Of a stretch of DNA of 64,000 bases, positions 2,019 through 58,428 are shown one piece after another (within the stretch, counting starts at the first letter, position 1; every line of letters starts with the position of its first letter). The position numbers and the translations under genes are program-made. Source of the stretch: an uncultured Ignavibacteria bacterium (GTDB taxonomy: Bacteria > Bacteroidota > Ignavibacteria > Ignavibacteriales > Ignavibacteriaceae); assembly GCA_963743325.1 (NCBI GenBank), contig CAVUOZ010000006.1, positions 5,207 to 69,206 of the forward strand, in the 5' to 3' direction. Under the pieces are notes generated by a model that ran no database searches, was not told where the DNA came from, and saw nothing but the letters and a program-made list of their open reading frames with translations.

Positions 2019-2020
2019 TT

Positions 2021-3196: not shown

Positions 3197-3201
3197 ATAA
3201 A

Positions 3202-4926: not shown

Positions 4927-4930
4927 AACT

Positions 4931-5356: not shown

Positions 5357-5380
5357 AATTAAAAAAGCAGAAGAAAATAA

Positions 5381-28890: not shown

Positions 28891-29901
28891 ATGGCTACGA
28901 CCATAAAAGAAGTCGCTTCAAAAGCTAATGTTTCAATAGCAACTGTTTCAAGGGTGTTGAATAATAATCCCAACGTAGCAAAGCAGACTTTCAACCGGAT
29001 CCTGCAGATCGCCAACCAGTTAAATTACAAACCCAATCTCATTGCTCGTAACCTTGTTAAAAAAAACACCAGTATTATAGGATTAGTTCTTCCTGAAATT
29101 CAAGGTGATTTTTTTACAGGTATAATTAAAGGTGTCGATGAAGTGGCTTATTCTTCAAAGTATCACATGGTTGTTGCAAGTTCACATAGTGAACGATCAA
29201 ATGTTGAGTCGCTATTGAATTTCATGGGTAAGAGTATGGTTGATGGTGTTATAATCATGTCCCCTTTAATAAATGATCATATCAAAGAGGTAATCAATAA
29301 AAGTGAGACTCCTTTAGTTATCATTGACAGTGGTTCTCCTATCGAAAATGTCGATACTGTAAACATAGATAACTTTCAAGGTGCATATGCGATTACAGAA
29401 TATTTAATTAAAAACTTAGGCTATAAAAAAGTTGCACACATAGAAGGTCCGGCTAATAATAACGATGCAATCCAAAGAAAGGCTGGTTACATTGAAGCGC
29501 TATATAAAAATAATATTCCTATTAAACAGGAATGGATTGTTCCGGGAGGCTTTACATCTGATGGCGGGAGATTAGCATGTTCAAGACTGCTGAGCCTAAT
29601 TGAAAAACCGCAGGTAATTTTCGCTGGTAATGATATGATGGCTGCCGGATGTTATAAAACTATAGAATCTCTCGGCTTGAATGTACCTGATGATATTGGT
29701 GTAACCGGTTTTGATGATATTATTTTATCTGAATTCCTTACCCCCAGACTTACGACTGTTCACATTCCAATTACAGAAATAGGGAAATCAGCTGCCAGAT
29801 TATTAATCAATAAAATCAAAAATGGAAAGGATCATAAGTTAAAGCACCTGAAAGTTTCTACTGGGATTATAGTTGGTAAATCCTGTAGATTCCAGAAATA
29901 A
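28891..29901 (+). CDS. LacI-family transcriptional regulator
   Basis: N-terminal HTH TIKEVASKANVSIATVSRVLNN and YKPNLIARNL, followed by a periplasmic-binding-protein-like sugar-binding core (GFDD). Confidence 0.9.
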   Translation: MATTIKEVASKANVSIATVSRVLNNNPNVAKQTFNRILQIANQLNYKPNLIARNLVKKNTSIIGLVLPEIQGDFFTGIIKGVDEVAYSSKYHMVVASSHSERSNVESLLNFMGKSMVDGVIIMSPLINDHIKEVINKSETPLVIIDSGSPIENVDTVNIDNFQGAYAITEYLIKNLGYKKVAHIEGPANNNDAIQRKAGYIEALYKNNIPIKQEWIVPGGFTSDGGRLACSRLLSLIEKPQVIFAGNDMMAAGCYKTIESLGLNVPDDIGVTGFDDIILSEFLTPRLTTVHIPITEIGKSAARLLINKIKNGKDHKLKHLKVSTGIIVGKSCRFQK

Positions 29902-29967: not shown

Positions 29968-31722
29968 ATGAAACGATTGTCACATACAATCACAAGTCTT
30001 CTTTTTCTCATACTATTTTTCTGCTCAATGAATGTTGTTGCACAAACACATTCGGATCCAGCCTTTATTCAAGTAGTATCAACTGCTGAACCAATGAATG
30101 TTGATGGTGTTCTGGATGAAACTGATTGGTTAAAGCGCTTTGACTATCTTGTTTACAAGTCTGGATCTTTACCAGGAGATATAATCTATACAGTCACAGA
30201 TACGCTAACTGTAAAATCCACCTATACTGATACAACAACGACATTTGTTAAATTTTTGCATAATGGTCTTGACCTGTATATCTCCCTTCAATCTGACGAC
30301 CATTCTGTGGGAAAATTTGGTACAAGTTGGGAGGGCGATGGCCTATTTATGAAGATTAAAGATGCCTCAGGAATACCGGTAGAATATAAATTATATTTTA
30401 ATTTAGGAGGTATTAATCCGGATATTCATTATGAAGAACCAGCAAACTACCCGGGGTCCGGCGAAGGGGCTGCGTGGAAACCAGCATCAACCATTGTTAA
30501 TGATACATCGCAGGTTGATTCAGGCTATACTGCGGAAATGGTCATACATCTTGATCAGCTGGGGTACACTGATCCATACGGAGATATTGAAGTAGCTATT
30601 AATATTTTTGATCCTGATGGATATGTTGATGATATGGATCCATACGGATCCGTGGGCTCTTACTGGAAGAGTTGGTGGGGAAGTGAGTGGGGAACTGATC
30701 TTAGGATTTTAAGATTGTCAGATCCTCAGTTGGTGGGTGCTATTAACACTACAGACAACATCACTTTAGACGGGAAACTTGACGAAGCTTTTTGGAATGG
30801 TGCCGACGGGGTAGTGGTCGGACTTGGTTCTAACACAAGTACAGGTGGTTATTATATGCAATGGAATAATCCACTCAATGCATATACTGATCAAAGTATG
30901 GCTACCATTAAGTTTGTTCATAATGGAACTGATCTTTATGTTGGTGTAACTTCTGATGATAAATCGGTTTGTGAATGGGCACCCGGATGGGAAGCGGATG
31001 GTTTATTCCTCTGGATGACTAATAAAGGTGATTATCTGCCGGATCCCGCTCAAAGAATGGAAATAAAGAATATGTACTTTGGAAATACAATTGATACCTC
31101 TGCCGTATTCCAGTTGAGTGCTACTGTACCTACCGGTGGTGCCGAAGGAATGTCATTTGAACCAATCGGAACGGTGACTCATACCGAAGTAGGTGGAGAA
31201 GATGCAGGTTATTCTCTGGAAGTTGTTATTCACACGGATTTATTTGGCTACTCCAATGGAGATACTGTTCGTTTGAGCACTGTCATATGGGATTTGGATT
31301 ATTCATCGGCTGATGCTTATGATGAGGATACATCTGATTATGCTCCACATTGGTGGGGAACTCAATGGGTAGACAGAACTTTTGAAAAGTATAATCTTTT
31401 TAGAAAAGTTTTCCTGTCAAGTGCTACTGATGTTAAAGATTATAATCTCAGCAATCCTATCACATTCCAATTATCACAAAATTATCCGAATCCTTTTAAC
31501 CCGACAACTACTATTCGTTATTCAATTCCCAAAGGGACAAAGATAACTCTGAAAGTATTTGATATTCTTGGAAATGAAGTTGCAACTCTTGTTAATGAGT
31601 ATAAAAATGCAGGCAGCTATTATACCGACTGGAAACCTTCTAATGTTGCAAGCGGTGTTTATTTCTATCGTCTGCAAGCCGGTGATTTAGTGAAAACTAA
31701 TAAGTTGATATTACTGAGATAA
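29968..31722 (+). CDS. Secreted tandem CBM9-like carbohydrate-binding protein with T9SS C-terminal domain
   Basis: Signal peptide, then two internally repeated modules: DGVLDETDW...FLHNGLDLYISLQSDD...WEGDGLF...GYTAEMVIHLD and DGKLDEAFW...FVHNGTDLYVGVTSDD...WEADGLF...GYSLEVVIHTD. The C-terminal domain is NYPNPFNPTTTIRYSIP...GVYFYRLQAG...KLILLR. Confidence 0.5.
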   Translation: MKRLSHTITSLLFLILFFCSMNVVAQTHSDPAFIQVVSTAEPMNVDGVLDETDWLKRFDYLVYKSGSLPGDIIYTVTDTLTVKSTYTDTTTTFVKFLHNGLDLYISLQSDDHSVGKFGTSWEGDGLFMKIKDASGIPVEYKLYFNLGGINPDIHYEEPANYPGSGEGAAWKPASTIVNDTSQVDSGYTAEMVIHLDQLGYTDPYGDIEVAINIFDPDGYVDDMDPYGSVGSYWKSWWGSEWGTDLRILRLSDPQLVGAINTTDNITLDGKLDEAFWNGADGVVVGLGSNTSTGGYYMQWNNPLNAYTDQSMATIKFVHNGTDLYVGVTSDDKSVCEWAPGWEADGLFLWMTNKGDYLPDPAQRMEIKNMYFGNTIDTSAVFQLSATVPTGGAEGMSFEPIGTVTHTEVGGEDAGYSLEVVIHTDLFGYSNGDTVRLSTVIWDLDYSSADAYDEDTSDYAPHWWGTQWVDRTFEKYNLFRKVFLSSATDVKDYNLSNPITFQLSQNYPNPFNPTTTIRYSIPKGTKITLKVFDILGNEVATLVNEYKNAGSYYTDWKPSNVASGVYFYRLQAGDLVKTNKLILLR

Positions 31723-31731
31723 CTTAATTGA

Positions 31732-31768
31732 GGGAGTAAACTAAAAAAAGTTTACTCCCATTTCTTTT
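31732..31768 (+). terminator. Rho-independent terminator or attenuator after the CBM9-like gene
   Basis: Perfect 10-bp stem gggagtaaac / gtttactccc with an A-rich loop, followed by atttctttt. Confidence 0.55.
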
Positions 31769-31825
31769 GGTAAGAGGATTTATTTCTTCTGTATAACATT
31801 TTTTATGACAAACTATTAGATATAC

Positions 31826-34474
31826 ATGAGAAAATTTTACCACCCAGCAATTCTAATTATACTGCTTTTTATTTTCAATCAAGCAGCAGTTTATTCAGGC
31901 CAAACTGGGAAAATTACCGGAAATGTAAAAGATAAAAACTCTGGCGAACTTCTTATTGGCGCCAATATAATAATTGAAAATTCTACAATGGGAGCTGCTG
32001 CTGATCTCAATGGCGAGTACTTTATTCTTAATGTGCCCCCGGGTGAATATAATCTCGTTGCTTCAATGATCGGTTATCAAAGTATGAAGGTTACGGGAGT
32101 TATAATTGAAGCCGACAAAACCACGCGCATAAATTTTGAGCTGGAAGCAAAAACTCTTCAGTTGGATCAAGAAGTTGTCGTAACAGCACAAAAAATAATT
32201 ATTAGGAGAGACCTGACTTCGAGTGAACTTTCTGTATCGTCAAATGAAATAAAAAGTCTTCCGGTGGAAGGTCTCGGAGATATACTTCAAATGAAAGCCG
32301 GAGTGGTAAAAGATGCAACTGGGGGAATTCATATAAGAGGAGGTCGGGCATCCGAAGTTAGCTATCTTGTCGATGGAATTCCTGTGAACGATTTTTATTC
32401 TGGATCAGGCGGAGCAAATGTCGATGTTCAGTTTATGGAGGAAGTGAAAGTAATCAGCGGTGTGTTTAATGCAGAATACGGACAGGCACTATCCGGCGTT
32501 GTTGATGTAATAACAAAACAAACTTCAAAAAAATTTGAAGGAAATGTATCGTTTTCTACCGGGGATTATTTCAGCAATAATAAGAATGTCTTTTATAATA
32601 TAAATAATATAAACCCGGCAAGTGTGAACGAAGCAAAAATAAATCTTAGCGGTCCGATAGGAATTTTGGGAAGCAACTTAAGTTATAACGTTGCTTTAAG
32701 GAGATTTTCCAATGATGGTTGGTTGTATGGACAGCGGCGGTTTAATCCTAAAGATAGTTCATTTCAGGAAGGAGATGTTTTCCACATTGTATCTACTGGT
32801 GATGATAAAGTTGTTTCGATGAATTCTTTTTTAAATTACAGCTTTCAGGGGAAAATCAGCCTCGATTTATTTTCTAATTTAATATTAGCAAATCTTTTTT
32901 TATGGGATAAATCGGATTCTATGAATTATGATCATATATATAAACTTAATCCGGATGGATTACCCAAAAAATATAGTAATACCATTAATAATATCACATC
33001 ATTAACTTATGTTTTCTCACCAAGCACATTTATGCAGCTAAAATATTCTTATAACCGAAATGAATGGAAATCATATGTTTACGAAAATATGAATGACCCA
33101 CGATATGCGAATCCCGAATTACTATATCAACTTACTAGCTATGCCTTTTTAACCGGGGGAACTGATATGCATCATGATAGCCGCATTATTCAGACTAATA
33201 TTGGTAAAGCTGATTTATTAAGCCAGGTTGACCGCTATAACGAACTTAAAACCGGAATTGAATTTGACCTGTCTCAAATTCAGCCCGAAAATGAAATTGT
33301 CAAATATCAGGATACAATTAAAATTTTTGATTACAATTATTATTTTAATCAGGGCGTTTTTTACTTTAAACCTATTTCTTTTTCTGGGTATATTCAGGAT
33401 AAGATTGAATACAAAAGCGTTATTATTAATGCGGGATTAAGATATGACTATTTTAATTCCAGGGGAAAGATTCCAAGCGATTTAGCTGACCCACAGGGTT
33501 CGCCTAAAATAAACACGAAGCCACAACATCAAATAAGTCCACGTCTAGGAATTGCTTTCCCGATATCAGCCGACGGTACTATTCATTTTAGCTATGGTCA
33601 TTTTTTCCAGGTTCCTCCATATAGTTACTTATACACAAATCCTAATTTCAGAGTAGGTCCCGGAGGTTTATATACTTTAATGGGAAATGCTGATTTAAAA
33701 GCCCAATCTACAATAGCTTATGAGGTAGGACTTCACTACAAATTTCTGGATATGATCGGTTTGGAAGTTATTGGTTTTTACAAAGATATTACAAATCTAT
33801 TAGGGACTGAAATTCATGATACTTATATAAGAAGTGATCGTTATGCTCTTTATGTTAACCGTGATTATGGTAAAGCCAGGGGATTTTCAATCTCTTTATC
33901 AAAGCAGCCGATAAAAGATAATGTATCAATCAGTGTTGATTACACACTTCAGATTGCAGAAGGTAATGCCTCAGATCCGAATGATGCTTATAATAGATCC
34001 CAGGGAACTCCTCCCCAAAAACCGAATATTCAAATTGTTCCTTTGAATTGGGATCAAAGGCAGACGATCAATATTTCACTTTTTTATATAATTCCCGCGG
34101 ATTTTGACCTCGGAATAATAGCTAAATATGAAAGTGGTTTTCCATATACACCGGAATTACAATCAATTCAAACCAGTTTTGAAAATAGTGCGAGAATGCC
34201 GTCTAAAATAAACGTCGATCTTCAATTCAATAAGGATTTTGCAATCTCTAACTCTACGATTTCTTTATTCCTGAAAGTCTTTAATCTATTTGATACTAAG
34301 AATGAAATTAATGTTTACAGAGATACAGGCAGAGCAGGTTATTCACTTATTACTCAATACACACCGCAGTATCAGGGACCAAATACTCTAAACGAATTTT
34401 TGAATAGACCTGACTATTATTACGAACCCAGAAGGATCATGCTAGGTGTTTCCTATAATTTAAATCTGAAATAG
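31826..34474 (+). CDS. TonB-dependent outer-membrane receptor with N-terminal carboxypeptidase-regulatory-like domain
   Basis: Signal peptide, then GKITGNVKDKNSGELLIGANIII...DLNGEYFILNVPPGEYNLVASMIGYQ. The plug region has GGIHIRGGRASEVSYLVDGIPVND. A long beta-barrel follows, ending in GVSYNLNLK. Confidence 0.85.
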   Translation: MRKFYHPAILIILLFIFNQAAVYSGQTGKITGNVKDKNSGELLIGANIIIENSTMGAAADLNGEYFILNVPPGEYNLVASMIGYQSMKVTGVIIEADKTTRINFELEAKTLQLDQEVVVTAQKIIIRRDLTSSELSVSSNEIKSLPVEGLGDILQMKAGVVKDATGGIHIRGGRASEVSYLVDGIPVNDFYSGSGGANVDVQFMEEVKVISGVFNAEYGQALSGVVDVITKQTSKKFEGNVSFSTGDYFSNNKNVFYNINNINPASVNEAKINLSGPIGILGSNLSYNVALRRFSNDGWLYGQRRFNPKDSSFQEGDVFHIVSTGDDKVVSMNSFLNYSFQGKISLDLFSNLILANLFLWDKSDSMNYDHIYKLNPDGLPKKYSNTINNITSLTYVFSPSTFMQLKYSYNRNEWKSYVYENMNDPRYANPELLYQLTSYAFLTGGTDMHHDSRIIQTNIGKADLLSQVDRYNELKTGIEFDLSQIQPENEIVKYQDTIKIFDYNYYFNQGVFYFKPISFSGYIQDKIEYKSVIINAGLRYDYFNSRGKIPSDLADPQGSPKINTKPQHQISPRLGIAFPISADGTIHFSYGHFFQVPPYSYLYTNPNFRVGPGGLYTLMGNADLKAQSTIAYEVGLHYKFLDMIGLEVIGFYKDITNLLGTEIHDTYIRSDRYALYVNRDYGKARGFSISLSKQPIKDNVSISVDYTLQIAEGNASDPNDAYNRSQGTPPQKPNIQIVPLNWDQRQTINISLFYIIPADFDLGIIAKYESGFPYTPELQSIQTSFENSARMPSKINVDLQFNKDFAISNSTISLFLKVFNLFDTKNEINVYRDTGRAGYSLITQYTPQYQGPNTLNEFLNRPDYYYEPRRIMLGVSYNLNLK

Positions 34475-34483
34475 GTTCATGTT

Positions 34484-37400
34484 ATGAATAACATCAGATC
34501 AATACTAATCACAACATTGCTAATTTTAATTTTTTCATCGGAAATTCTCTCCCAAATTCACGTTCCGATGAATATGAGAGGAGACAGGAAGTATAGAAAA
34601 GACGGGATTCATAACGGTAATTTGGTTGAAACACTTTTCTATAATTTTGGTGAAGTAGCTTGGTGGGGAAGAGAACCTTCTGGAGTTTGGCCTAAAGGAT
34701 CCGGACATTCTTACATGGATGGTATTACACCGATTGTCGCCGCTGAAGTTTTAGATCAGACCGGTAATACAATTCATATTGTTGAAGCCGGATACAGGGA
34801 AAATATGGATATCTCTCCAACCGGAGTTGAGCGGGGCTGGCAGCCAAGACCAGGATTTGTAAATCCAAATCAAGATAATATTGCTATGAGCGATAAGCCT
34901 ATTACCTGGCCAGAAAGTTGGCCTGATAAAGACATTGCGTGGAATGGGTTTTGGAACGGCTATTTTGGAAAGCACACCAATGCGGATCAGGAGAGTTTTT
35001 TTGTAATGGATGATAATAGCGATGACGGACCGGATTTCTTCCCGGATTCTACAGATCATACGCGAAGAGGATTGGGGTTAAGTGTCGGTGTTCGAGGTTT
35101 TCAATGGTCTAATATTTTGGCCGAGGATATAATTTTCTGGCATTATGAAATTACTAATGAGAGTACTCAGGATTACACAAAAATAATATTTGGAATGTAT
35201 GTTGATTGCGGGGTGGGAGGTCAGTACGATTCCAATGATGATTATGCATCATTTGATATCGATAATGATATAACCTATAGCTGGGATAATGACGGTATCG
35301 GTCAGGGGGGGTGGCATCCCACGGGTTACGCAGGCTATGCTTTTCTTGAAAGTCCTGGAAACGGCTATAATAAAGTTGATGATGACAACGATGGTGAGAT
35401 GGGAAGTCCTACAATCATTTCTCAAATGCTAATAGGAGAAATAAAAGGAAATGGTATAGATGATAATAATAACGGATTGGTTGATGAAGATTCAATTAAT
35501 ATTGGAATGAAATATGGTGACGGTATAGATAATAATGGTGATGGAAAAATTGATGAGATGATAGATGAAACAAGAGATGATGGACTTGATAACGATGGTA
35601 ATTGGGATCCTAATACCGATGATGTCGGATTGGATGGATTAGCCGGTACAGGAGATTTTGGAGAAGGGGATGGAAAACCGACTTCCGGTTGGCAGATACC
35701 TGGTTTAGTTCCCGGTGCCCCAACTTTTCCCGTTAATAAATTTGGTTTAGTCGATACAAAACAACCGGGAGAACCGCACATTGATAAAACAGATAAAAAT
35801 GAATCCGATCAAATTGGATTAACAGCATTTGATGTTTTCTTCATAGGTTCAGGAGTCGTTTTCAGAGATGATGATAGGATATGGGAAAGAATTTCGTACA
35901 GCCATTTCGATACGAGATTACAAAATGGAAACATTGCCTTCTTGTTCGGTTCCGGTCCATTTATACTACCTGCAGGTACTACAGAAAGATTTTCATTAGC
36001 CCTGGTATTCGGAAACGATTTACAAGATATTCAAAGAAATAAAGAGGTTGTACAAGATATATATAATAATAATTATAATTTTGCCCGACCTCCTGATAAA
36101 CCAACTTTAACTGCAGTAGCCGGTGATGGAAAAGTAACATTATATTGGGATAATGCAGCAGAAAATTCTTACGACGATTTTTTGAAAGATTATGATTTTG
36201 AAGGATATAAAATTTATAGGGCTACTGATCCAGGTTTTCTCGACGCCTATACAATTACCAGCGGGTACGGAGAAAATACTCTTTTCAAACCTGCCGCTCA
36301 ATTTGACATTGTAGATGATATTCAAGGATTTTTCCCTCTTGATTACCAGGGAGTTAAAATTTATATGGGTGATAACAAAGGATTGAGACACTCCTGGGTT
36401 GACACAAATGTAATAAACGGACAAACATATTACTATGCATTAGTTTCATACGATAAAGGAAATTCAGGAATCGGTTTATATCCATCCGAATGTGCTAAAG
36501 TTATTGTTCGTGATCTTGCAGGAAATATAACGGTAGATAAAAATACTGCATATATTACTCCTGGGACAAGGACCGCAGGATATATGCAACCCGGTTTAGA
36601 AAACGGTATTGCACATAGTAATGGTTTTGGTACTGGAAATGTCGAAGTCGATATTCTGGATCCAAATATAATATCAAATGGAAATTATTCTCTTTCCTTT
36701 GATGATATTACACATTCAGATACAATATCGTACTCTTTATTTAAAATAAACGGCACAGATTCTTTAAATATTTTCGTCGACTCACGATACATTAAGGGGG
36801 AAGATTACAATCCCATGTTCAATGGAATGCGAATTCTTGTAACAAATGATACTATTGCTTATGATCCTGACAAATCCGGTTGGAAGAATGGTACTTCAAA
36901 TCTTCTTATTCAAGGACAACTTTTATATTCCTTACCATCAAGAGTGCATGGATATCCTTCCAGTTATGAAATACGGGTAGGGTTACCTGATTCTTCCTGG
37001 CGGTTTGGCTACAGATCTGCCACAAATTTCCAGGTTTGGGATATCTATGAGAATGAAAAAATAAGATATTACTTGTGGGAGCCAGATACACTCATCGATG
37101 GAAAAATATCTGCAGGAGATTATATAACAATTTGGAAAGAGGTAAACTCAGTTTGGAGAGAAATTTGGAAATTTACTTTTATTGCACCGCCAAATCAAAA
37201 ATTATTTCTGCCTTCTGACGGAGAATTAGGAGAAATTGTTATTAAAACCCCATTCCGAAATGGTGACATATTTACATTCCAAACCAGAGGAGCAGAGATA
37301 AATTCGGAACAGGCAGTTGAAGATCTTAGCAAGATTGCCGTGGTTCCTAATCCATATGTCGGTGCAGCACTGTGGGAGCCACAAAGATTAACATCTTCAG

Positions 37401-37639
37401 GGAGAGGAGAAAGACGGATTTATTTTATACATCTTCCGAAAGAAGCTACGATTCGTATTTATACAATTAGTGGGGATCTTGTAAAAACCATTTATCATAA
37501 TTCTTTAAATTTTGATGGCCAGGAACCCTGGGACCTAACGAATCAAAATGGACTGGATATAGCACCTGGAATATATATTTTCCAGGTTGAATCACCTGGT
37601 CTACCAAGTAAAATTGACAAATTCGCTATAATTAAATAA
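34484..37639 (+). CDS. 1051-aa secreted protein of unknown function with a Ca-binding-type Asp-rich repeat block, an FN3-like domain and a divergent CTD-like tail
   Basis: Signal peptide without a lipobox Cys. The D-x-D-x-D-G type repeats are DDDNDGE, DDNNNGLVDED, GIDNNGDGKIDE, DDGLDNDGNWDPNTDD and VGLDG. An FN3-like segment reads PDKPTLTAVAGDGKVTLYWDN...YKIYR. The tail VVPNPYVG...IRIYTISGDLVKTIYH...GIYIFQVE...KFAIIK is patterned like a T9SS C-terminal domain. The gene starts 9 nt after the TBDR gene. Confidence 0.6.
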   Translation: MNNIRSILITTLLILIFSSEILSQIHVPMNMRGDRKYRKDGIHNGNLVETLFYNFGEVAWWGREPSGVWPKGSGHSYMDGITPIVAAEVLDQTGNTIHIVEAGYRENMDISPTGVERGWQPRPGFVNPNQDNIAMSDKPITWPESWPDKDIAWNGFWNGYFGKHTNADQESFFVMDDNSDDGPDFFPDSTDHTRRGLGLSVGVRGFQWSNILAEDIIFWHYEITNESTQDYTKIIFGMYVDCGVGGQYDSNDDYASFDIDNDITYSWDNDGIGQGGWHPTGYAGYAFLESPGNGYNKVDDDNDGEMGSPTIISQMLIGEIKGNGIDDNNNGLVDEDSINIGMKYGDGIDNNGDGKIDEMIDETRDDGLDNDGNWDPNTDDVGLDGLAGTGDFGEGDGKPTSGWQIPGLVPGAPTFPVNKFGLVDTKQPGEPHIDKTDKNESDQIGLTAFDVFFIGSGVVFRDDDRIWERISYSHFDTRLQNGNIAFLFGSGPFILPAGTTERFSLALVFGNDLQDIQRNKEVVQDIYNNNYNFARPPDKPTLTAVAGDGKVTLYWDNAAENSYDDFLKDYDFEGYKIYRATDPGFLDAYTITSGYGENTLFKPAAQFDIVDDIQGFFPLDYQGVKIYMGDNKGLRHSWVDTNVINGQTYYYALVSYDKGNSGIGLYPSECAKVIVRDLAGNITVDKNTAYITPGTRTAGYMQPGLENGIAHSNGFGTGNVEVDILDPNIISNGNYSLSFDDITHSDTISYSLFKINGTDSLNIFVDSRYIKGEDYNPMFNGMRILVTNDTIAYDPDKSGWKNGTSNLLIQGQLLYSLPSRVHGYPSSYEIRVGLPDSSWRFGYRSATNFQVWDIYENEKIRYYLWEPDTLIDGKISAGDYITIWKEVNSVWREIWKFTFIAPPNQKLFLPSDGELGEIVIKTPFRNGDIFTFQTRGAEINSEQAVEDLSKIAVVPNPYVGAALWEPQRLTSSGRGERRIYFIHLPKEATIRIYTISGDLVKTIYHNSLNFDGQEPWDLTNQNGLDIAPGIYIFQVESPGLPSKIDKFAIIK

Positions 37640-37653
37640 AACGGGTTTGTGTT

Positions 37654-38664
37654 ATGGATATAAAGAAATTTATAATCCTAGTAATTTTGCTATTAAGCAA
37701 TTACGGATTATCCCAAGTCTTTTCTGGTACAACTGCAGGTCAATTTTTAAAGATTGAAGTTGGGGCTAAAGCAATTGGGATGGGAGGAGCATTTGTCTCG
37801 CAGTCAAATGACGTATCTTCGATATATTGGAATCCTGGCAGTATAGCAAAACTTAAAAATAGTTCGGCAATGTTTACGCATACCTATTGGATAGCCAGTC
37901 TCAACCATGATTTTGCCGGAGTAATTCTAAAAATTGGTGAACAAAATGCAGTGGGATTTAGTTATACGACGTTAGGGACAGGAGATATGAAAGTCCGTAC
38001 CGAGATTTATCCGGAGGGAACTGGTGAATTTTTTACTGCAAATGATTATGCAATTGGAATAAGTTATGGAATGAATCTTACTGAAGATTTCAGTATCGGA
38101 GTTACGGGTAAATATGTCGGCGAGAAAATTTGGCATATGTCTGCCTCTACAATTGCATTTGATTTTGGTTTACTATATAACACCCCAATAAACAATCTTA
38201 ATCTTGGAATGAGTATTTCTAATATCGGGGGAAAAATAAAATATGCAGGAGAGGACAACTTTATCTATTATAGCTATAATCCGGACGAACATGGAAATAG
38301 TCAAAATATATATGCTGAAATAAAAATGGATGAATGGGATTTACCTCTTATATACAGAGTTGGTCTCTCAATGAAAATATTGGAAGGTGATATGCATTCA
38401 ATCATAATTTCTGCTGATGCGCTCCACCCAAATGACTATAATGAATTTGTCAATTTAGGTTTTGAGTATGGATTTAAGGAGAGAGTATTTTTAAGAGCAG
38501 GATATAAGTCTTTGTTTAAAAAGGAGAGCGAAGAAGGATTGACAGCCGGGCTAGGACTATTGTATTATCTCACAGATTATATGCCTCTTAAAGTAGATTA
38601 TGCTTATGCTGACTTCGGCAGGTTGGATGCTGTTCATAGAATTTCTTTAGAAATTGGATTTTAA
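37654..38664 (+). CDS. PorV-like (FadL-fold) outer-membrane beta-barrel
   Basis: Signal peptide, then the N-terminal motif TAGQFLKIEVGAKAIGMGGAFVSQSNDVSSIYWNPGSIA, as in PorV/LptO-family proteins. C-terminal SLEIGF. The gene starts 14 nt after the preceding gene. Confidence 0.6.
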   Translation: MDIKKFIILVILLLSNYGLSQVFSGTTAGQFLKIEVGAKAIGMGGAFVSQSNDVSSIYWNPGSIAKLKNSSAMFTHTYWIASLNHDFAGVILKIGEQNAVGFSYTTLGTGDMKVRTEIYPEGTGEFFTANDYAIGISYGMNLTEDFSIGVTGKYVGEKIWHMSASTIAFDFGLLYNTPINNLNLGMSISNIGGKIKYAGEDNFIYYSYNPDEHGNSQNIYAEIKMDEWDLPLIYRVGLSMKILEGDMHSIIISADALHPNDYNEFVNLGFEYGFKERVFLRAGYKSLFKKESEEGLTAGLGLLYYLTDYMPLKVDYAYADFGRLDAVHRISLEIGF

Positions 38665-38691: not shown

Positions 38692-41070
38692 ATGCCCCTC
38701 TTTGAAAATAAATATGGATATTTCTCAGATGATGGAAATGAGTATATAATTACTACTCCCCAAACTCCAAAACCGTGGATCAATGTGATCTCCAACGGCG
38801 AATATGGTTTGGTAATCTCCCAAGCCGGCGGAGGATTTAGTTGGCTCACGCATTCGGAATTGAATCGTTTGAATAGATGGCATCAAGACCTTGTTCAAGA
38901 TAATTGGGGTAAATATATTTATATAAAGGATAATACTACAGGTGATATTTGGAGCCCTACCTGGCAGCCGGTTAAAAAAGATCTTGATTCCTTTAAGTGC
39001 AGACACGGGATAGGTTATACAATCTTTGAGACTATTTACCACAAAATTAAAATTGAATTGATTTTATTCGTCCCTTTTGAAGAAAGTATCGAAATATGGG
39101 ATTTAAAGATTTATAATTTGAGAGAACAGAGTGTTGATTTATCACTCTTCACTTATTTTGAATGGTGTCTCGGTTCGTCTATGGATCATCACCGCGAGTT
39201 TCATAAATGTTTCATTGATGTACAATTTGATCGAGAATGTAATGGACTATTAGCTCGAAAACGAATTTGGGAAATTCCTACAGGGGATAGAGGATATTGG
39301 AATACAGAATATCCATATACTGGATTTTTATCGAATAATAAAAAAGTTTCCGCTTACGATAGTGATAAATGTTCCTTTCTCGGACAATATGGTTCCCTTC
39401 AAAAACCCATTAGTTTGATGGAAGGCAAACTTTCACAATCTACCGGTATGTGGGGAGATCCTGTTGCCTGCTTAAATAATCATATCAAGATTAAAAATAA
39501 ATCTTCTTTCAGAATAGTTTATACTGCCGGATTAAAAAAAAATAGAGCTGAGATAGTCTCATCGATTCAAAAATTTAAAAATTTAAAAAATGTCGATGCC
39601 GCCTTTTTAGAAATCAAAGATAAATGGAAAACAATGCTTGGAAACCTTGAGATTGAAACTCCTGATAAAGCTATGAACTTGATGGTTAATACATGGCTTC
39701 CATACCAGGCTATATCCGGAAGACTATGGGGAAGGACAGCATATTATCAACAAAGTGGTGCATACGGATTTAGAGATCAACTGCAGGATAGCCTGATATT
39801 CTTAACAATTGATCCCAAAGAAACAAAGAAACAAATCCAGCTTCATGCACGTCATCAATTTTTTGATGGAACGGTCCTCCATTGGTGGCATCCTATAACC
39901 GAACTCGGTTTAGCAACAAAAATGACTGATGATTTGCTATGGCTTCCTTTCCTTGTCATTGAGTATATCAAGGAATCAGCAGACTACGAATTTCTAAATG
40001 AATTAGAACCATATTATGACTTGAAAAATGAAACAGGGACAATATTTGAACATTGTGTTAAGGCAATTGATAAGGTACTATCACGATTTACCGAACGAGG
40101 TTTGCCCCTTATCGGAGCAGGTGATTGGAATGACGGAATTAGTGCGGCCGGACTTGAGATGAAAGGAGAGTCGATTTGGTTGACGGAATTTATGTATTTA
40201 ATCCTGACCAAATTCTCAAAGATTGCTAAAAAATTAAATCAAGATTATTATTCCGAAAAATATGAATTAGCTGGAGAGAAACTTCAGATTTCTTTCAATA
40301 AAATTGCGTGGGATGGAGAGTGGTATTTTCGTGGAACAAAAGATGATGGAGAAAAATTTGGGAGTGCTAAAAATTCTGAAGGACAAATATATCTTAACCC
40401 TCAGGTATGGGCGGTAATAAGTAATATAGCACCTAAAGAGAAACAAATAAAAGCAATAAATTCTGTTGAAAAAATACTGTTAAAGAAAAATGGTTGCTTG
40501 TTGTTGTATCCTGCATATTATAACCCGGACAAATTTATTGGTTATTTAACACGCTATGCTCCCGGAAGGAGAGAGAATGGAGGAGTGTATACTCATGCAT
40601 CAACATGGGCCATAATAGCGCTCTGTAAACTCGATAGGGACGCGATTGCATATGATGTCTTCAAAAGATTATGTCCTATATATAATTCTCAGCATCCAGA
40701 TGTTTATGAAGTCGAACCATATGTGACACCCGGAAATATTGACGGACCTGATTCAAAATTTTATGGGAGAGGCGGATGGACATGGTATACAGGTTCAGCT
40801 ACATGGTATCAAAAAGTTATCGTTGAATGGATCCTTGGAATACGAGCTTGCGAAGAGGGATTATTGATTGATCCGCATATTCCATTAAAATGGGATAAGT
40901 TTAAAATAAGAAGACTATTCAGGGGAACTATCTACCTAATCCAATTTAATGTACCAGAGGATTCCAAAGGAATAGTTGATTTAATAAATGTCGATGGTGA
41001 TAAAATACAGGGAAATATTATCACTCCATTAAATAAAGCAATATGTGAGGTAGAGGTAATAATTCGTTAA
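38692..41070 (+). CDS. GH94 glycoside phosphorylase (cellobiose/beta-oligoglucan phosphorylase family), cytoplasmic
   Basis: Colinear with cellobiose phosphorylase as I recall that sequence. Matching blocks: YGYFSDDGNEYIITTPQTPKPWINV, RHGIGYT, GFRDQLQD, catalytic-Asp block LPLIGAGDWNDG, RENGGVYTHASTW and GWTWYTGSATW. No signal peptide. Confidence 0.8.
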   Translation: MPLFENKYGYFSDDGNEYIITTPQTPKPWINVISNGEYGLVISQAGGGFSWLTHSELNRLNRWHQDLVQDNWGKYIYIKDNTTGDIWSPTWQPVKKDLDSFKCRHGIGYTIFETIYHKIKIELILFVPFEESIEIWDLKIYNLREQSVDLSLFTYFEWCLGSSMDHHREFHKCFIDVQFDRECNGLLARKRIWEIPTGDRGYWNTEYPYTGFLSNNKKVSAYDSDKCSFLGQYGSLQKPISLMEGKLSQSTGMWGDPVACLNNHIKIKNKSSFRIVYTAGLKKNRAEIVSSIQKFKNLKNVDAAFLEIKDKWKTMLGNLEIETPDKAMNLMVNTWLPYQAISGRLWGRTAYYQQSGAYGFRDQLQDSLIFLTIDPKETKKQIQLHARHQFFDGTVLHWWHPITELGLATKMTDDLLWLPFLVIEYIKESADYEFLNELEPYYDLKNETGTIFEHCVKAIDKVLSRFTERGLPLIGAGDWNDGISAAGLEMKGESIWLTEFMYLILTKFSKIAKKLNQDYYSEKYELAGEKLQISFNKIAWDGEWYFRGTKDDGEKFGSAKNSEGQIYLNPQVWAVISNIAPKEKQIKAINSVEKILLKKNGCLLLYPAYYNPDKFIGYLTRYAPGRRENGGVYTHASTWAIIALCKLDRDAIAYDVFKRLCPIYNSQHPDVYEVEPYVTPGNIDGPDSKFYGRGGWTWYTGSATWYQKVIVEWILGIRACEEGLLIDPHIPLKWDKFKIRRLFRGTIYLIQFNVPEDSKGIVDLINVDGDKIQGNIITPLNKAICEVEVIIR

Positions 41071-41558: not shown

Positions 41559-43964
41559 ATGAAAAAGACAATAACTTACATTTTGTTTTCTTTTCTGTTA
41601 TTTACTTTAAAAGTAAATGCCCAGAGTCCTTATCTATTCTTCAGTGACAGTCCTGATAACACTTTTTACGACTGGAGCTGGGGATTTGTTAATTCCCCAA
41701 GTTTATTAGAGCGGGTAGGTGAAAAATTTCCTGTAGATACAGCACATCATTATTCGGGAATAAATAGTTTAAAACTCCACTGGACTTCGATCTCCACCGG
41801 AGATTGGGGGATCGCCTGTGCAGCAATTGGAACGCCATGGCCGACTTGGGATGTAACAATTATGGACTCGGTTCAATTGTGGGTATATACCGAACAGCCC
41901 GTTGATCATTTGAAATTACCTGTAATGTATCTTGAAGACAATAACAATCATAAATCGATTCATTTGAAAATTTCTGATTATTCCTCAGATATTCCCGCAA
42001 ATATTTGGACTAAAGTATCCTTACCAATTGATGTTTTCATTAATGGCTCAAGCGGTGTTGATTTTACCATAATCAAAACAATATTCTTTGGCCAGGATGA
42101 AGCTGATGGGGAGGAGCATACATTTTCCCTTGATGAAATTAGGATAATTTCAAATGGAACTGCAAGTGATACCATTCCGCCAGCTTCTCCCGTAGGTTTA
42201 TCTGCAGAAGGATTCGACAGACATATAGATTTAAAATGGACATTAAATACTGAACCAGATGTAGCGGGTTATAATATTTTTAAGCAGCAGGGAACCGATT
42301 TTGTAATTATAGGCGTAGCTTCCAGGGATGATAGATATTATACGGATTTTATTGGACAAAGCGGCGTCACCGGTACTTATAAGATAACTGCATTTGATAA
42401 TAATCAGAATGAATCCGGATTTTCGGGAATGGCAAGTTCTTCAACGCAAGAATTAAGTGATGATGAACTTCTTGATATGGTCGAAGAAGCAACCTTTAGA
42501 TTTTTTTGGGATTATGCCCATCCTTATTCAGGGTTAGCAAGAGAAAGAACTGGTTCAGGTAATACTGTAACCACCGGTGGATCAGGTTTTGGAATTATGG
42601 CTATACTTGTGGGAATTGAAAGAGGATTTATAACCAGGGAACAGGGAGCCCAAAGAATGCTTCAAATATTAAATTTTCTTTCTACTGAGGCTGACAGGTT
42701 TCATGGTGCCTTGCCTCATTGGTTAGATGGTGAAACTGGTCACATAATTCCATTCAGCCAGTATGATGACGGTGGTGATCTTGTGGAAACTGCTTTTATG
42801 ATGCAAGGTCTCCTTGCTGCTAAACAATATTTCGACCAAAATAATACAACAGAAAATGTTATCAGAATTTATATTAATGGTTTGTGGGAGGCCGTGGAAT
42901 GGAGCTGGTATAGGAAAGATCCACCGACTAATTATCTTTACTGGCATTGGTCACCCAATTATGGCTGGACTATGAATTTTCCACTAATTGGCTGGAATGA
43001 AACTATGATAACATACTTGTTAGCAATAGCATCACCGACTTACAGTATTCCCTCAAATTTATATTATGATGGCTGGGCAAGCAGTTCAAACTATACTAAC
43101 GGCAATTCGTTTTATGGTATACCTTTGGAGGTAGGATGGGATTTCGGTGGTCCCTTATTTTTCGCTCATTATTCTTTTTTGGGATTTGATGCAAGAAGTA
43201 AAAAAGATAGCTTCACAAACTACTTTATAAATAATTATCACCATACCTTAATTAATCGAGCCTACTGCATCGATAATCCTGGCGGCCACACAGGTTATTC
43301 AAGTTCTCTTTGGGGATTAACATCCTCAGATGATCCTTATGGATATAGTGCTCATTCTCCTTTTAATGGCGATAATGGAACTATAACCCCAACAGCAGCA
43401 CTTTCCTCAATGCCATACACGCCGGTTGAATCTATGGAAGTTCTTAAAAATCTCTATAGAAATTACGGAGATCATATTTGGGGAATTTACGGGTTTAAGG
43501 ATGCAATGAATTTAGAGCAAAATTGGTACGCATCAAGTTATTTAGCTATAGATCAAGGTCCAATTATCGTCATGATTGAGAATGCGCGGACACAATTATT
43601 ATGGAACAAATTTATGGCGAATCCTGAAATTCAGCCTATGCTTGATGCAATTGGTTTTGTACCTGATTATACTGACGTAAAAATTAAATCCGAAATGCCG
43701 GAGCAATATTTATTAAAGAACAATTATCCTAATCCGTTTAACCCGGGCACAACTATCGAATTTCAAATCGCTAAAACCGGATTCGTTACTCTAAAAATAT
43801 ATGATGTTTTGGGAAACGAAGTTAAAACTCTTGTCAGTGAAGAAAAAAAACCGGGAGACTATACAATAAAATTTGATGCAGGCTCACTTTCAAGCGGAAT
43901 ATATTTTTATGTACTGAAAGCAGGCAGACAAATATTTTCCAAGAAGATGTGCCTGATTAAATAA
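41559..43964 (+). CDS. Secreted multidomain GH144-like (PF10091 glycoamylase-like, candidate endo-beta-1,2-glucanase) with N-terminal CBM-like domain, FN3 and T9SS C-terminal domain
   Basis: Signal peptide and an FN3-like segment (PPASPVGLSAEGFDRHIDLKWT...YNIFK). The (alpha/alpha)6-type core has ATFRFFWDYAHPYSGLARERTG, GGSGFGIMAI, WNETMITYLLAIASP and YLAIDQGPIIVMIENART. The C-terminal domain is NYPNPFNPGTTIEF...GIYFYVLKAG...KKMCLIK. Confidence 0.55.
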   Translation: MKKTITYILFSFLLFTLKVNAQSPYLFFSDSPDNTFYDWSWGFVNSPSLLERVGEKFPVDTAHHYSGINSLKLHWTSISTGDWGIACAAIGTPWPTWDVTIMDSVQLWVYTEQPVDHLKLPVMYLEDNNNHKSIHLKISDYSSDIPANIWTKVSLPIDVFINGSSGVDFTIIKTIFFGQDEADGEEHTFSLDEIRIISNGTASDTIPPASPVGLSAEGFDRHIDLKWTLNTEPDVAGYNIFKQQGTDFVIIGVASRDDRYYTDFIGQSGVTGTYKITAFDNNQNESGFSGMASSSTQELSDDELLDMVEEATFRFFWDYAHPYSGLARERTGSGNTVTTGGSGFGIMAILVGIERGFITREQGAQRMLQILNFLSTEADRFHGALPHWLDGETGHIIPFSQYDDGGDLVETAFMMQGLLAAKQYFDQNNTTENVIRIYINGLWEAVEWSWYRKDPPTNYLYWHWSPNYGWTMNFPLIGWNETMITYLLAIASPTYSIPSNLYYDGWASSSNYTNGNSFYGIPLEVGWDFGGPLFFAHYSFLGFDARSKKDSFTNYFINNYHHTLINRAYCIDNPGGHTGYSSSLWGLTSSDDPYGYSAHSPFNGDNGTITPTAALSSMPYTPVESMEVLKNLYRNYGDHIWGIYGFKDAMNLEQNWYASSYLAIDQGPIIVMIENARTQLLWNKFMANPEIQPMLDAIGFVPDYTDVKIKSEMPEQYLLKNNYPNPFNPGTTIEFQIAKTGFVTLKIYDVLGNEVKTLVSEEKKPGDYTIKFDAGSLSSGIYFYVLKAGRQIFSKKMCLIK

Positions 43965-44634: not shown

Positions 44635-45990
44635 ATGAAAAAGTCCCTTTTGATTTTCTTTCTTTTGTTTACTCATTCTGCATTCTCACAGTATGTTCCG
44701 ACAAAGGAAGAAAATGCGTTTCTTGATACGCTGCAGTACAAATCCTTTCTTTTTTTTATGAACGAAATTAATCCTGAAAATGGTCTTGTAAAAGACCGCA
44801 CTACAGAGGAATCAGCCTCATCAATTGCTGCGGTCGGGTGGGGGGTTGCAGCCTGGGCTATCGGTGCTGAGCACAACTGGATCACCAGGGAGAAAGCTGC
44901 AGAGCTTACATTGGATCTTGTCAGATTTTTGAATAATTCCGAACAAAGTGCAAAACCGGATGCTACCGGTTACAATGGCTTCTATTATCATTTTCTTAAC
45001 ATGAAAACAGGAAAGCGTGAATGGAATTCTGAGCTTTCGACGATTGATACTGCATTTCTCCTGGCAGGAATACGATTTGCAACCCAGTATTATCATCGTG
45101 ACAATGAGGCAGAAAAGGAAATCCGTGAACTTGGTGATAAACTTACAAACAGGGTAAACTGGGACTGGACTATTATTGGAAAATCAAAAAATAAGGGTTA
45201 TGAAGGATTAATTGTAATGGCATACAATCCGGATGACGGTTTGGGTGATTTCGGCTGGTTCGGTTATACTGAAGCTCTTTATTTGTATGTGCTGGCTGCA
45301 GGGACAAATCTCAGCAGCCCTATGAAAGCATATGAAGCCTGGCTTTCAGAATATGATTGGAAGGAACCTTATGAAGGACTTGCTCACGTAATTTTTCCGC
45401 CGCTATTCGGACACCAGTATTCTCATATGTTCATCGATTTCAGAGGCTTGGCTGATAAATATATGAGAGAAAAGGGAATCGATTATTTTGAAAATTCAAG
45501 AAGAGCGACATTGTCCAATTGGAATTATTGTATCCAGAATCCTGGAGGGTGGACTGGTTATGATTCTCTGACCTGGGGGATAAGTGCATGTGACGGTCCC
45601 GGAGATTTTGAGAGCGATAGAAAAAGATTTTACGGATACGCCGGACGAGGCGCCAGCGGACCTGATGATGTTGTTGCAGATGACGGGACCATTACACCCG
45701 AAGCTGCAAGCGGATCAATACCTTTCGCACCGGAAATCTGTATCCCTGCGCTGAAGAATATGTATGATAAATATGGCGATAAAGGATTATGGGGTAAGTA
45801 CGGATTAAAAGATGCTTTTAATCTTACAGTTAACTGGTACGATAAAGATTATTTAGGGCTTGATGAAGGACCCATTGTAATTATGATTGAAAACTACAGA
45901 ACCGGACTGATCTGGAAATTTTCTATGAAAGATCCGGTAATAATAAGAGGACTTGAAAGATTGGGATTTGCAAAAACAGAAAATAAGTGA
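44635..45990 (+). CDS. Secreted GH144-like (PF10091 glycoamylase-like) enzyme, single domain
   Basis: Signal peptide. Motifs: SFLFFMNEINPENGLVKDRT, SIAAVGWGVAAW, STIDTAFLLAGI and YLGLDEGPIVIMIENYRTGLIW. It is a paralog of the core of 41559-43964. Confidence 0.55.
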   Translation: MKKSLLIFFLLFTHSAFSQYVPTKEENAFLDTLQYKSFLFFMNEINPENGLVKDRTTEESASSIAAVGWGVAAWAIGAEHNWITREKAAELTLDLVRFLNNSEQSAKPDATGYNGFYYHFLNMKTGKREWNSELSTIDTAFLLAGIRFATQYYHRDNEAEKEIRELGDKLTNRVNWDWTIIGKSKNKGYEGLIVMAYNPDDGLGDFGWFGYTEALYLYVLAAGTNLSSPMKAYEAWLSEYDWKEPYEGLAHVIFPPLFGHQYSHMFIDFRGLADKYMREKGIDYFENSRRATLSNWNYCIQNPGGWTGYDSLTWGISACDGPGDFESDRKRFYGYAGRGASGPDDVVADDGTITPEAASGSIPFAPEICIPALKNMYDKYGDKGLWGKYGLKDAFNLTVNWYDKDYLGLDEGPIVIMIENYRTGLIWKFSMKDPVIIRGLERLGFAKTENK

Positions 45991-46027
45991 GCATAAACTC
46001 CATCGCGCAACACAGGAATATGACCTT

Positions 46028-50067: not shown

Positions 50068-50094
50068 TCCTGGTATTTATCATATTTAAAAAAA

Positions 50095-53379: not shown

Positions 53380-53395
53380 CAAAAAATGAATTTGT

Positions 53396-58426: not shown

Positions 58427-58428
58427 AA

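Follow-up and report, generated by a model that had tools for sequence, protein, structure and literature searches.

A recurrent cassette of a TonB-dependent receptor, a giant secreted protein and a PorV/PorQ-family barrel in a predicted β-1,2-glucan locus of an Ignavibacteria bacterium

The locus

A canonical polysaccharide utilization locus (PUL), according to the definition used in PULDB, contains a susC-like gene adjoining a susD-like gene. This work deals with a glycan locus of another composition, located in a stretch of 64,000 nucleotides (nt) from an uncultured Ignavibacteria bacterium (GenBank assembly GCA_963743325.1, contig CAVUOZ010000006.1, positions 5,207 to 69,206 of the forward strand), hereafter called the window. 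Four consecutive plus-strand genes of its table of open reading frames (ORFs) are concerned: gene 1 (29968-31722, encoding 584 amino acids, aa), a gene for a TonB-dependent receptor (TBDR; 31826-34474, 882 aa), a gene for a giant secreted protein (34484-37639, 1051 aa) and a gene for an outer-membrane β-barrel of the PorV/PorQ family (37654-38664, 336 aa). The last three, called here the trio, are separated by gaps of only 9 nt (34475-34483) and 14 nt (37640-37653), and a GH94 gene begins 27 nt past the barrel gene. The coordinates and both gaps exactly reproduce those of the original prediction, which had been made from the letters alone; its suggestion that the trio is probably co-translated goes further than the gaps, which suggest co-transcription or translational coupling. 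The order of the four-gene module that had been proposed also holds, and its extent does not: the giant protein has an end resembling the C-terminal domain (CTD) of type IX secretion system (T9SS) cargo, which had been missed, and the four genes are a subset at the front of a same-strand locus of about 30 kb (28891-59238).

The trio looks like a PUL-like front end for TonB-dependent glycan import that brings together a new protein family and a putative PorV-family anchor, and there is a substantial chance that it constitutes a distinct type of outer-membrane complex. No description of it was found in the full-text literature, subscription-only literature lying outside the search, and the trio is not mentioned in the searched passages of the Caldithrix (PMC5317091) and Melioribacter (PMC3534657) genome papers, nor in those of a 2026 review on bacterial glycoside transporters (PMC13543919). 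The literature on SusD-less clusters of Ignavibacteria to which the original prediction referred could not be found either; the paper on Melioribacter roseus reports a canonical SusCDE operon (PMC3534657).

Recurrence of the trio

The giant gene was followed through 127 loci, obtained from a scan of one genome per species (44 loci), from a metagenome scan with the family profile (80 loci) and from exact look-ups (3 loci). Its neighbours were counted by tblastn; an ORF-based count gave spurious exceptions arising from antisense or over-extended ORFs. A TBDR gene lies directly 5′ of the giant gene in 107 of the 108 evaluable loci, and a PorV-like barrel gene directly 3′ of it in 107 of 110. The median gaps are 11 nt between the TBDR and giant genes and 12 nt between the giant and barrel genes, with overlaps of 1 or 4 nt at 12/90 and 15/90 of these junctions, figures for which the most upstream start codons were used and which may understate the gaps. 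The trio recurs in at least six related phyla, its sources being Ignavibacteria/Ignavibacteriaceae, Melioribacteraceae, Calditrichota, KSB1, Marinimicrobia, Delongbacteria, WOR-3 and many metagenome-assembled genomes labelled “Bacteroidetes bacterium”. It had been proposed that the whole idea should be given up if the three genes did not occur together beyond this genome; the trio is near-invariant in the 127 loci, beside different sets of carbohydrate-active enzymes (CAZymes). That three unrelated envelope genes should be adjacent by chance can be practically dismissed, given both adjacency counts, the number of loci and their spread over several phyla and many environments.

The genes around the trio vary with its divergence. 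Loci L001 to L036, those of Marinimicrobia and other close ones are orthologous β-1,2-glucan loci with LacI, gene-1 family, GH94 and GH144 genes. Copies of the trio at 32-44% identity adjoin other genes, such as those for GH66 dextranase-type enzymes with a T9SS CTD, GH13/GH57 amylases, CBM20/48/53 T9SS proteins, GH130, GH3, GH2 and rhamnosidase-like six-hairpin enzymes, as well as M1 peptidase, XylR/LacI-type regulators and ATP-binding cassette (ABC) importers. The typical order is regulator, T9SS surface protein, TBDR, giant protein, barrel, sometimes a peptidyl-prolyl isomerase, ABC importer and cytoplasmic enzymes.

Several variants of this arrangement were observed. The whole trio is duplicated in tandem (TBDR-giant-barrel twice) behind a GntR regulator in L128:6997-21845, and also in L117. 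An α-glucan locus of WOR-3 (L129:7190-17703, with GH13/GH57 and CBM20) has the order TBDR, giant protein, 949-aa T9SS-CTD protein and PorV-like barrel, a hint that the barrel may have more than one CTD protein as its client. A gene for a PPIC-type peptidyl-prolyl isomerase of about 615 aa (SurA/PpiD-like) is found in 18 non-orthologous trio loci (e.g., L101:6148-7995), immediately after the barrel gene in 11/93; this isomerase, missing from the locus of the window, may be a periplasmic chaperone for the cassette.

The TonB-dependent receptor

The TBDR gene (31826-34474) encodes, from the N-terminus, a CarboxypepD_reg extension (PF13715), a TonB-box-like motif, a plug (PF07715) and a barrel matching the 22-strand barrel domain PF00593, the last two exceeding their Pfam cut-offs with 46 and 93 bits, as is proper to a TonB-dependent receptor. 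The TonB-box-like motif, DQEVVVTA, read from the translation (aa 114-121; 32165-32188, plus strand), stands between the extension and the plug, and this is also the place of the TonB box in SusC-type transporters. Nonetheless, the receptor does not belong to the SusC/RagA family as modelled: the 83.8 bits given by TIGR04056 are far below its cut-off of 368 and come from aa 29-261 alone. In a profile search of the PDB, the SusC homologues 5t3r_D and 8aa4_A and RagA (6sli_B) match only the N-terminal extension and the plug, and no close solved relative was found in that database. The best PDB profile match of the TBDRs of the trios is 9gbc_A, a 796-aa “TonB-linked outer membrane receptor”, likewise over the N-terminal extension and the plug only.

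As had been predicted, no gene for a SusD-like lipoprotein follows the TBDR gene, and none of the neighbours scanned has a SusD-type Pfam match. The giant gene stands in that place, as it does in 107/108 of the related loci, so that the adjacent susC-like and susD-like genes of a canonical PUL are lacking.

The giant protein

The giant protein carries a signal peptide of the signal peptidase I type (aa 1-23), with no Cys in its first 30 residues and no lipobox. It belongs to a large family that is still without annotation: Pfam and NCBIfam have no model that it matches above cut-off, and the PDB contains no sequence relative. A word-indexed search gave at least 3,934 homologues, all of them named “hypothetical” and without a precomputed Pfam domain, and a profile search of 1.84 billion cluster representatives gave 9,608, 4,873 and 1,524 clusters (50% identity) at E≤1e-3, 1e-10 and 1e-30, respectively.

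The AlphaFold2 (AF2) model of the whole protein has a mean predicted local distance difference test score (pLDDT) of 75 and a predicted template modelling score (pTM) of 0.66. Five parts can be told apart, all on the plus strand. A conserved N-terminal β-supersandwich (aa 30-290 and 445-535; 34571-36088), defined from AF2 and Foldseek, is interrupted by an Asp/Gly-rich insert (aa 291-444; 35354-35815; 22% Asp plus Glu), which contains three D-x-[DN]-x-[DN]-G motifs and probably binds Ca. It is followed by one or more domains like fibronectin type III (FN3; aa ~536-690; 36089-36553), recognized by their AF2 strands at about aa 540-660 and having fibronectin FN3 arrays as top Foldseek matches, by a variable β-sandwich region (aa 691-950; 36554-37333) with a pLDDT of about 90, and by the CTD-like end. 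The earlier description of a large non-lipoprotein with Asp-rich repeats and an FN3-like domain is in keeping with the missing early Cys, the three Asp motifs and the FN3-like strands.

Full-length Foldseek searches are swamped by multi-domain FN3/Ig noise (TM≤0.24), and for this reason the N-domain was modelled separately (pTM 0.78). Its matches are restricted to GH94, GH149, GH116, PL26, dextran dextrinase and YidC-P1, and in these to the N-terminal supersandwich domain (TMq 0.17-0.35); the AF2 models of the giant protein contain no (α/α)6 or TIM catalytic part. The original prediction had regarded membership of a known enzyme family unrelated to transport as fatal to its proposal; what was found is a protein with no Pfam, NCBIfam or PDB match and with non-catalytic folds in AF2 and Foldseek.

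The conservation of the family is unevenly distributed along the chain. In a family-wide alignment of 37 sequences, invariance is confined to W, G, P, Y, F, N and R and to acidic residues of the insert; no Cys, His or Ser is invariant. Compared with paralogues from α-glucan loci, identity reaches 45-65% in the N-domain, 40-60% in FN3 and 44-60% in the CTD, and only 12-30% in aa ~691-950. Over 77 complete trios, the mean p-distance within the protein is lowest in the CTD (0.43), followed by FN3 and the N-domain (0.48-0.49), while that of the variable region is the largest among all parts of the trio (0.70). Since the N-domain, FN3 and CTD are conserved while aa 691-950 vary, the former may act as a machine-facing scaffold and the latter as a substrate-facing module.

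The same conservation may be read in another way, namely that the giant protein is an unrecognised surface enzyme whose supersandwich and Ca-binding insert are catalytic on some common glycan feature, the barrel merely anchoring it. Identity in the N-domain is unusually high, reaching 60% between phyla, and R, D, E, N and W residues are conserved in it; supersandwich folds accompany many glycoside hydrolases (GH), glycoside phosphorylases and polysaccharide lyases (PL), and galactose mutarotase is catalytic with such a fold. However, the Foldseek matches cover only non-catalytic N-terminal domains and do not exceed a TMq of 0.35, the (α/α)6 or TIM domain and any family match are missing, and the family occurs in loci for chemically different glycans (β-1,2-glucan, dextran/α-glucan and mannoside-type). 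We regard this enzymatic alternative as very unlikely.

The C-terminal domain and the barrel

The last 101 residues of the giant protein (aa 951-1051; 37334-37636, plus strand) align as a specialised T9SS-CTD-like domain, modelled as a β-sandwich at aa 979-1051. Its signature consists of VVPNPY, a subsequent insertion of 13-14 residues (W-E-P...G-R-G-x-R), which is missing from the CTD consensus of gene 1, and the ending GKFAIIK. Few stretches of the giant protein are as conserved as the insertion (aa 957-975; 37352-37408), and yet it is modelled with a pLDDT below 50, as is typical of a segment that becomes ordered only on a partner; it is therefore a candidate partner-binding motif.

This domain fails the cut-off of the type-A CTD model (TIGR04183, 17.1 bits versus 23), and PF18962 (cut-off 27 bits) has no match in 34 members of the giant family. 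Nonetheless, a jackhmmer search seeded with the conventional CTDs of the locus reaches 119 of the 127 giant proteins. A hidden Markov model built from the giant CTDs scores a median of 162 bits on giant proteins versus 14 bits (maximum 34.6) on conventional CTD proteins, and the converse model, built from conventional CTDs, a median of 14 bits on giant proteins versus 138 on conventional CTD proteins. The giant CTD is homologous to T9SS CTDs and forms a sharply separate, highly conserved subclass of them. In the PDB, its profile has relevant matches to two CTDs only, that of PorU (E=0.0024) and that of PorZ (E=0.039), the WD40 matches having been discarded as repeat-summing artefacts, and NCBIfam gives a weak match of the PorZ C-terminus on the giant protein. 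PorU and PorZ are the two T9SS cargo proteins known to have uncleaved CTDs, kept on PorV and PorQ, respectively, and “cognate PorV-like beta-barrels” have been proposed as a shield of CTDs against cleavage (PMC10202324). Similarly, it is PorP-like barrels encoded next to it that anchor CTD cargo of type B (PMC9143113). By analogy, the giant CTD would remain uncleaved and be held on its cognate barrel in the manner of PorZ on PorQ.

The barrel gene (37654-38664) fits this picture. Its product exceeds the cut-off of the PorV/PorQ family model NF033709 (224 versus 90 bits) and has F. johnsoniae PorV as its only PDB relative (E=4.7e-13 with the single sequence, 2.3e-25 with the profile), in agreement with the PorV-like barrel of the original prediction. 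It stays below the cut-offs of the orthologue models of PorV (NF033710, 94.9/250 bits), PorQ (NF033711, 101.4/220) and PorV2 (NF052325, 83.7/325); by these scores it is a member of the PorV/PorQ family and not an orthologue of the core T9SS components. In the most economical model, which follows from the CTD subclass with its PorU/PorZ matches, the family of the barrel and its adjacency to the giant gene, the barrel would be a dedicated membrane anchor of the giant protein, possibly also its delivery shuttle.

These findings are also compatible with a different role, in which the pair of giant protein and barrel would be the local equivalent, specific to its locus, of PorU-PorV or PorZ-PorQ; it would shuttle, process or position the other T9SS cargo (the gene-1 protein and the GH144 enzyme with a CTD) near the TBDR and would neither bind glycan nor feed the transporter. 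The barrel family and the PDB matches of the CTD profile, restricted to PorU and PorZ, point in this direction, as do the size of the giant protein (~1,050-1,300 aa), which resembles that of PorU, and the conventional CTD protein encoded just 5′ of the TBDR in 57/76 loci, many of which also have CTD-bearing enzymes. On the contrary, the giant protein has no peptidase fold, no conserved Cys/His dyad and no invariant Cys, His or Ser, its N-domain is a supersandwich and neither gingipain-like nor a propeller, the TBDR is adjacent in 107/108 loci versus only 57/76 for the gene of CTD cargo 5′ of it, and a generic processing factor would hardly be expected to vary as aa 691-950 do. We consider this role unlikely, and the identity of the giant protein as a PorU-like sortase was rejected, given the lack of dyad and of peptidase fold.

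The surrounding glycan locus

The same-strand locus is headed by a LacI-family regulator (28891-29901; Pfam LacI and Peripla_BP_1/3), which occupies the same position in most of the orthologous loci. Downstream of the trio, Pfam and NCBIfam identify a GH94 phosphorylase (38692-41070), a GH144 enzyme with CBM30 and a T9SS CTD (GH144a, 41559-43964), a second GH144 (GH144b, 44635-45990) and a BglX-like GH3 (45953-48241), all on the plus strand. GH144a exceeds the type-A CTD cut-offs with 39.2 bits for TIGR04183 and 41.3 bits for PF18962. Pfam domains in the remainder (48283-59238, plus strand) correspond to a GH43 protein with F5/8C, a 1094-aa CBM4_9/F5/8C protein, an esterase, a GH2-like protein, an ABC solute-binding protein and two permeases. 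In terms of domain composition, GH144, SOGP-type GH94, GH3 and an ABC importer stand together in one cluster; because this combination is the published signature (PMC8861115), the locus is assigned to β-1,2-glucan utilisation, with predicted enzyme specificities. According to the searched text of the same source, a matching set of enzymes has been published for a β-1,2-glucan cluster of Ignavibacterium album (PMC8861115).

Gene 1, at the other side of the trio, encodes a secreted protein with a signal peptide, two internal repeats and a conventional T9SS type-A CTD, as seen with Pfam and NCBIfam (43.1 bits for TIGR04183 and 36.4 bits for PF18962, Por_Secre_tail, both above cut-off). A T9SS CTD match is present in 22/22 of its orthologues. 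The product is a candidate surface glycan-binding protein (SGBP). The label “CBM9-like” that it had been given finds no support in sequence, since none of the 22 orthologues has a match to CBM9 (PF06452) at E≤0.1; CBM9_1 matches are confined to positional analogues of gene 1 in other loci, and the hhalign alignment of the gene-1 orthologues with a CBM9_1-bearing analogue runs mainly over the CTD and is uninformative on CBM9. It was in this position, immediately 5′ of the TBDR gene, that the conventional T9SS-CTD proteins of the 57/76 related loci were counted.

A terminator-like hairpin, detected by a consensus scan and inspection of the sequence, lies directly 3′ of gene 1 (31732-31759, plus strand), 66 nt before the start of the TBDR gene. 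It has an 11-bp stem with 5 GC pairs and a T-rich tail, and through this predicted element, expression of the trio could be uncoupled from that of gene 1 or attenuated relative to it. Given its position after gene 1, the tightly spaced unit is that of the TBDR, giant and barrel genes, followed by GH94.

Two additional observations concern the enzymes of the locus. The ORF of GH144b (ending at 45990) and the listed ORF of GH3 (with a TTG start at 45953) overlap by 38 nt, and the true start of GH3 is probably further downstream. The 1094-aa protein (50095-53379) is a second very large secreted protein, with CBM4_9 and F5/8 type C domains and no CTD detected; homologues of it are found in four other trio loci (e.g., L089:12782-15973).

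Proposed mechanism and its strength

The explanation that we hold to be moderately probable is that the four genes form an outer-membrane front end in which the conserved three-gene cassette takes the place of SusC/SusD, with the giant protein docked there and serving the TBDR as a substitute for SusD and SGBPs. It builds on what was observed of gene order and its conservation, domain families, CTD subclass, the lack of a detectable catalytic domain and the association with varied CAZymes. At the cell surface, β-1,2-glucan would be engaged by the GH144 endoglucanase displayed by the T9SS and by the gene-1 protein. Sec would carry the giant protein across the inner membrane, and the T9SS, by way of the CTD-like end, across the outer membrane; its specialised CTD would escape the sortase and stay bound to the dedicated barrel encoded 14 nt downstream, which would act as membrane anchor and be the counterpart of the lipid of SusD. 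The conserved supersandwich and FN3 would face the machinery (TBDR and/or barrel) and position the protein on the transporter, while the variable sandwiches (aa 691-950) would bind oligosaccharides and pass them to the TonB-energised receptor. After TonB-driven import, periplasmic GH144 and GH3, the ABC importer and cytoplasmic GH94 would complete the catabolism. A more specific version, in which the cassette is a new nutrient-capture machine whose T9SS-exported, Ca-binding giant protein holds an uncleaved CTD on its own barrel and caps or feeds a non-SusC TBDR as a counterpart of SusD, is possible although it falls just short of probable.

Co-divergence is suggestive of a trio that evolves as a unit and does not prove contact. 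The distance matrices of all its parts are correlated (r = 0.64-0.90), and among distant pairs the correlation with barrel distances is 0.64 for the TBDR barrel, 0.48 for the CTD, 0.46 for the variable region and 0.21 for the N-domain. This mirror-tree analysis was used as weak support only, given that it cannot separate physical contact from shared history.

Several points weigh against the SusC/SusD-like reading of the cassette. The correlations are largely as expected from shared ancestry alone, and that between CTD and barrel in distant pairs (0.48) is no higher than that between CTD and TBDR barrel (0.50). The PorU and PorZ matches of the giant CTD are weak, and in view of these E-values we infer the barrel-anchor model rather than assert it. 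The conservation of the N-domain across differing substrates could reflect an enzymatic or other common function. Contact among the TBDR, the giant protein and the barrel, and glycan binding by any domain of the giant protein, are putative. One canonical SusCDE operon is also reported for the related M. roseus (PMC3534657), so that the cassette coexists with Sus-type systems and does not simply replace them throughout the phylum. Finally, the order is broken in some loci: the giant gene at L084:7004-10237, with its CTD, has neither a TBDR nor a barrel of its own, an extra gene stands between the giant and barrel genes in L069 and L129, and L117 has a trio without a barrel directly 3′ of the giant gene. 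These exceptions, like the tandem copies of L117 and L128, are informative rather than contradictory. As to L084, the solo giant gene is flanked by GH130, rhamnosidase-like and GH2 genes and lies about 12 kb from the full trio L075 on the same contig, and its product may share the barrel or the TBDR of that trio.

Some of these exceptions would also suit a giant protein that is an SGBP-like binder tethered on its barrel and not contacting or gating the TBDR, so that co-regulated genes would encode two separate units. The solo gene of L084 and the genes inserted in L069 and L129 favour it, as does the TBDR, with its length of about 880 aa and without the barrel signature from which SusC-type transporters build their interface with SusD. 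Against it stand the near-invariant adjacency with short gaps at both junctions and the strong conservation of the N-domain and FN3 whatever the substrate, which suggests a protein partner. Such a tethered binder seems improbable to us. Regarding the original prediction, in which the triad may be a distinct glycan-capture and import apparatus with the giant protein substituting for SusD and the SGBPs, a SusD-less outer-membrane module tied to glycan use is well supported, whereas the complex, the binding of glycan and the replacement of SusD are presumptive.

Relation to known systems

A close parallel of the front end proposed here is provided by the SusC/SusD PULs of Bacteroidota (B. thetaiotaomicron Sus, BT2263/64 and RagAB). 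They likewise have an importer with a carboxypeptidase-regulatory-like extension, a TonB box and a plug, its gene is directly followed by the gene of a surface-exposed, non-enzymatic partner, and the pair is reused beside different CAZymes, regulators and inner-membrane importers, also in tandem copies. However, the trio has no SusD (a TPR lipoprotein); the partner is a β-rich T9SS-type protein of ~1,050-1,300 aa without lipobox, an obligatory third gene encodes the PorV/PorQ-family barrel, and the TBDR, unlike SusC, fails the SusC/RagA model and is ~150-200 aa shorter. PorZ-PorQ and PorU-PorV of P. gingivalis are likewise pairs of a large T9SS cargo and a 14-strand-type barrel of the PorV/PorQ family, in which the retained CTD acts as non-covalent anchor, something that for the trio is a proposal. 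Unlike these single-copy core parts of secretion, the pair of the trio is multi-copy, linked to a TBDR and placed inside catabolic loci, and the passenger of the giant protein consists of supersandwich, FN3 and sandwiches instead of the propellers of PorZ or the peptidase of PorU. In type-B systems (SprB-SprF in F. johnsoniae, PG1035-PorP in P. gingivalis) the cargo gene also stands beside that of a cognate anchoring barrel (PMC9143113, PMC10202324); these pairs differ from the trio in their PorP/SprF barrel, their CTD type and the lack of a link to a TonB-dependent receptor or to glycan catabolism.

With regard to the substrate, the SGL cluster of I. album (IALB_1177-1187; Kobayashi et al. 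2022, PMC8861115) contains, in the text searched, two GH144 genes, a GH94 SOGP homologue and an ABC sophoro-oligosaccharide binding protein. A TonB-dependent transporter is drawn there as the presumed outer-membrane step, “without biochemical evidence”, and neither the giant protein nor the PorV-like barrel is mentioned in the searched main and supplementary text (PMC8861115). Glycan-linked TonB-dependent transporters without SusD are likewise found in Proteobacteria (Xanthomonas CUT, marine Gammaproteobacteria), according to the searched passages of PMC13543919; in contrast to the trio loci, a conserved giant surface partner and a PorV-family barrel are missing there, as is the T9SS from the organisms concerned.

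The cassette has practical implications. PUL prediction in PULDB and dbCAN-PUL is keyed on susC/susD pairs, and it is therefore blind to the glycan loci of the FCB (Fibrobacteres-Chlorobi-Bacteroidetes) group that carry the trio, among them those of abundant lineages of sediments, hot springs, groundwater and oceans, such as Calditrichota, KSB1 and Marinimicrobia. The three-gene signature, with a positional fidelity of ~99% and ~97% at its two junctions, would be a practical marker for such loci, the giant protein defines a large family of thousands of clusters without a Pfam model, and its variable region is a candidate determinant of substrate specificity. If the proposed mechanism is true, the cassette joins type IX secretion and anchoring with TonB-dependent import, which are usually treated separately; PorV-family barrels would have been recruited from secretion into nutrient uptake, and the cognate PorV-like barrel that protects or anchors a CTD would extend from the secretion machinery to catabolic loci. 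It would also provide a counterpart of SusD across Ignavibacteria, Calditrichota, KSB1, Marinimicrobia, WOR-3 and their relatives, and a general PUL marker outside the classical Bacteroidia. Cultured relatives exist (I. album, M. roseus and C. abyssi), and enzymatically made β-1,2-glucan is a defined substrate.

Other features of the window

Unlinked to the glycan locus, a BNR/Ycf48-like β-propeller protein is encoded on the minus strand (17430-18944); its conventional T9SS CTD is a further indication that the organism uses the T9SS. Two other features are unrelated to the trio: the small and large subunits of a [NiFe]-hydrogenase, encoded with HdrA/ferredoxin-like FAD/4Fe-4S proteins at 203-7824, and a HypA-HypB fusion at 15556-16572, on the opposite strand.

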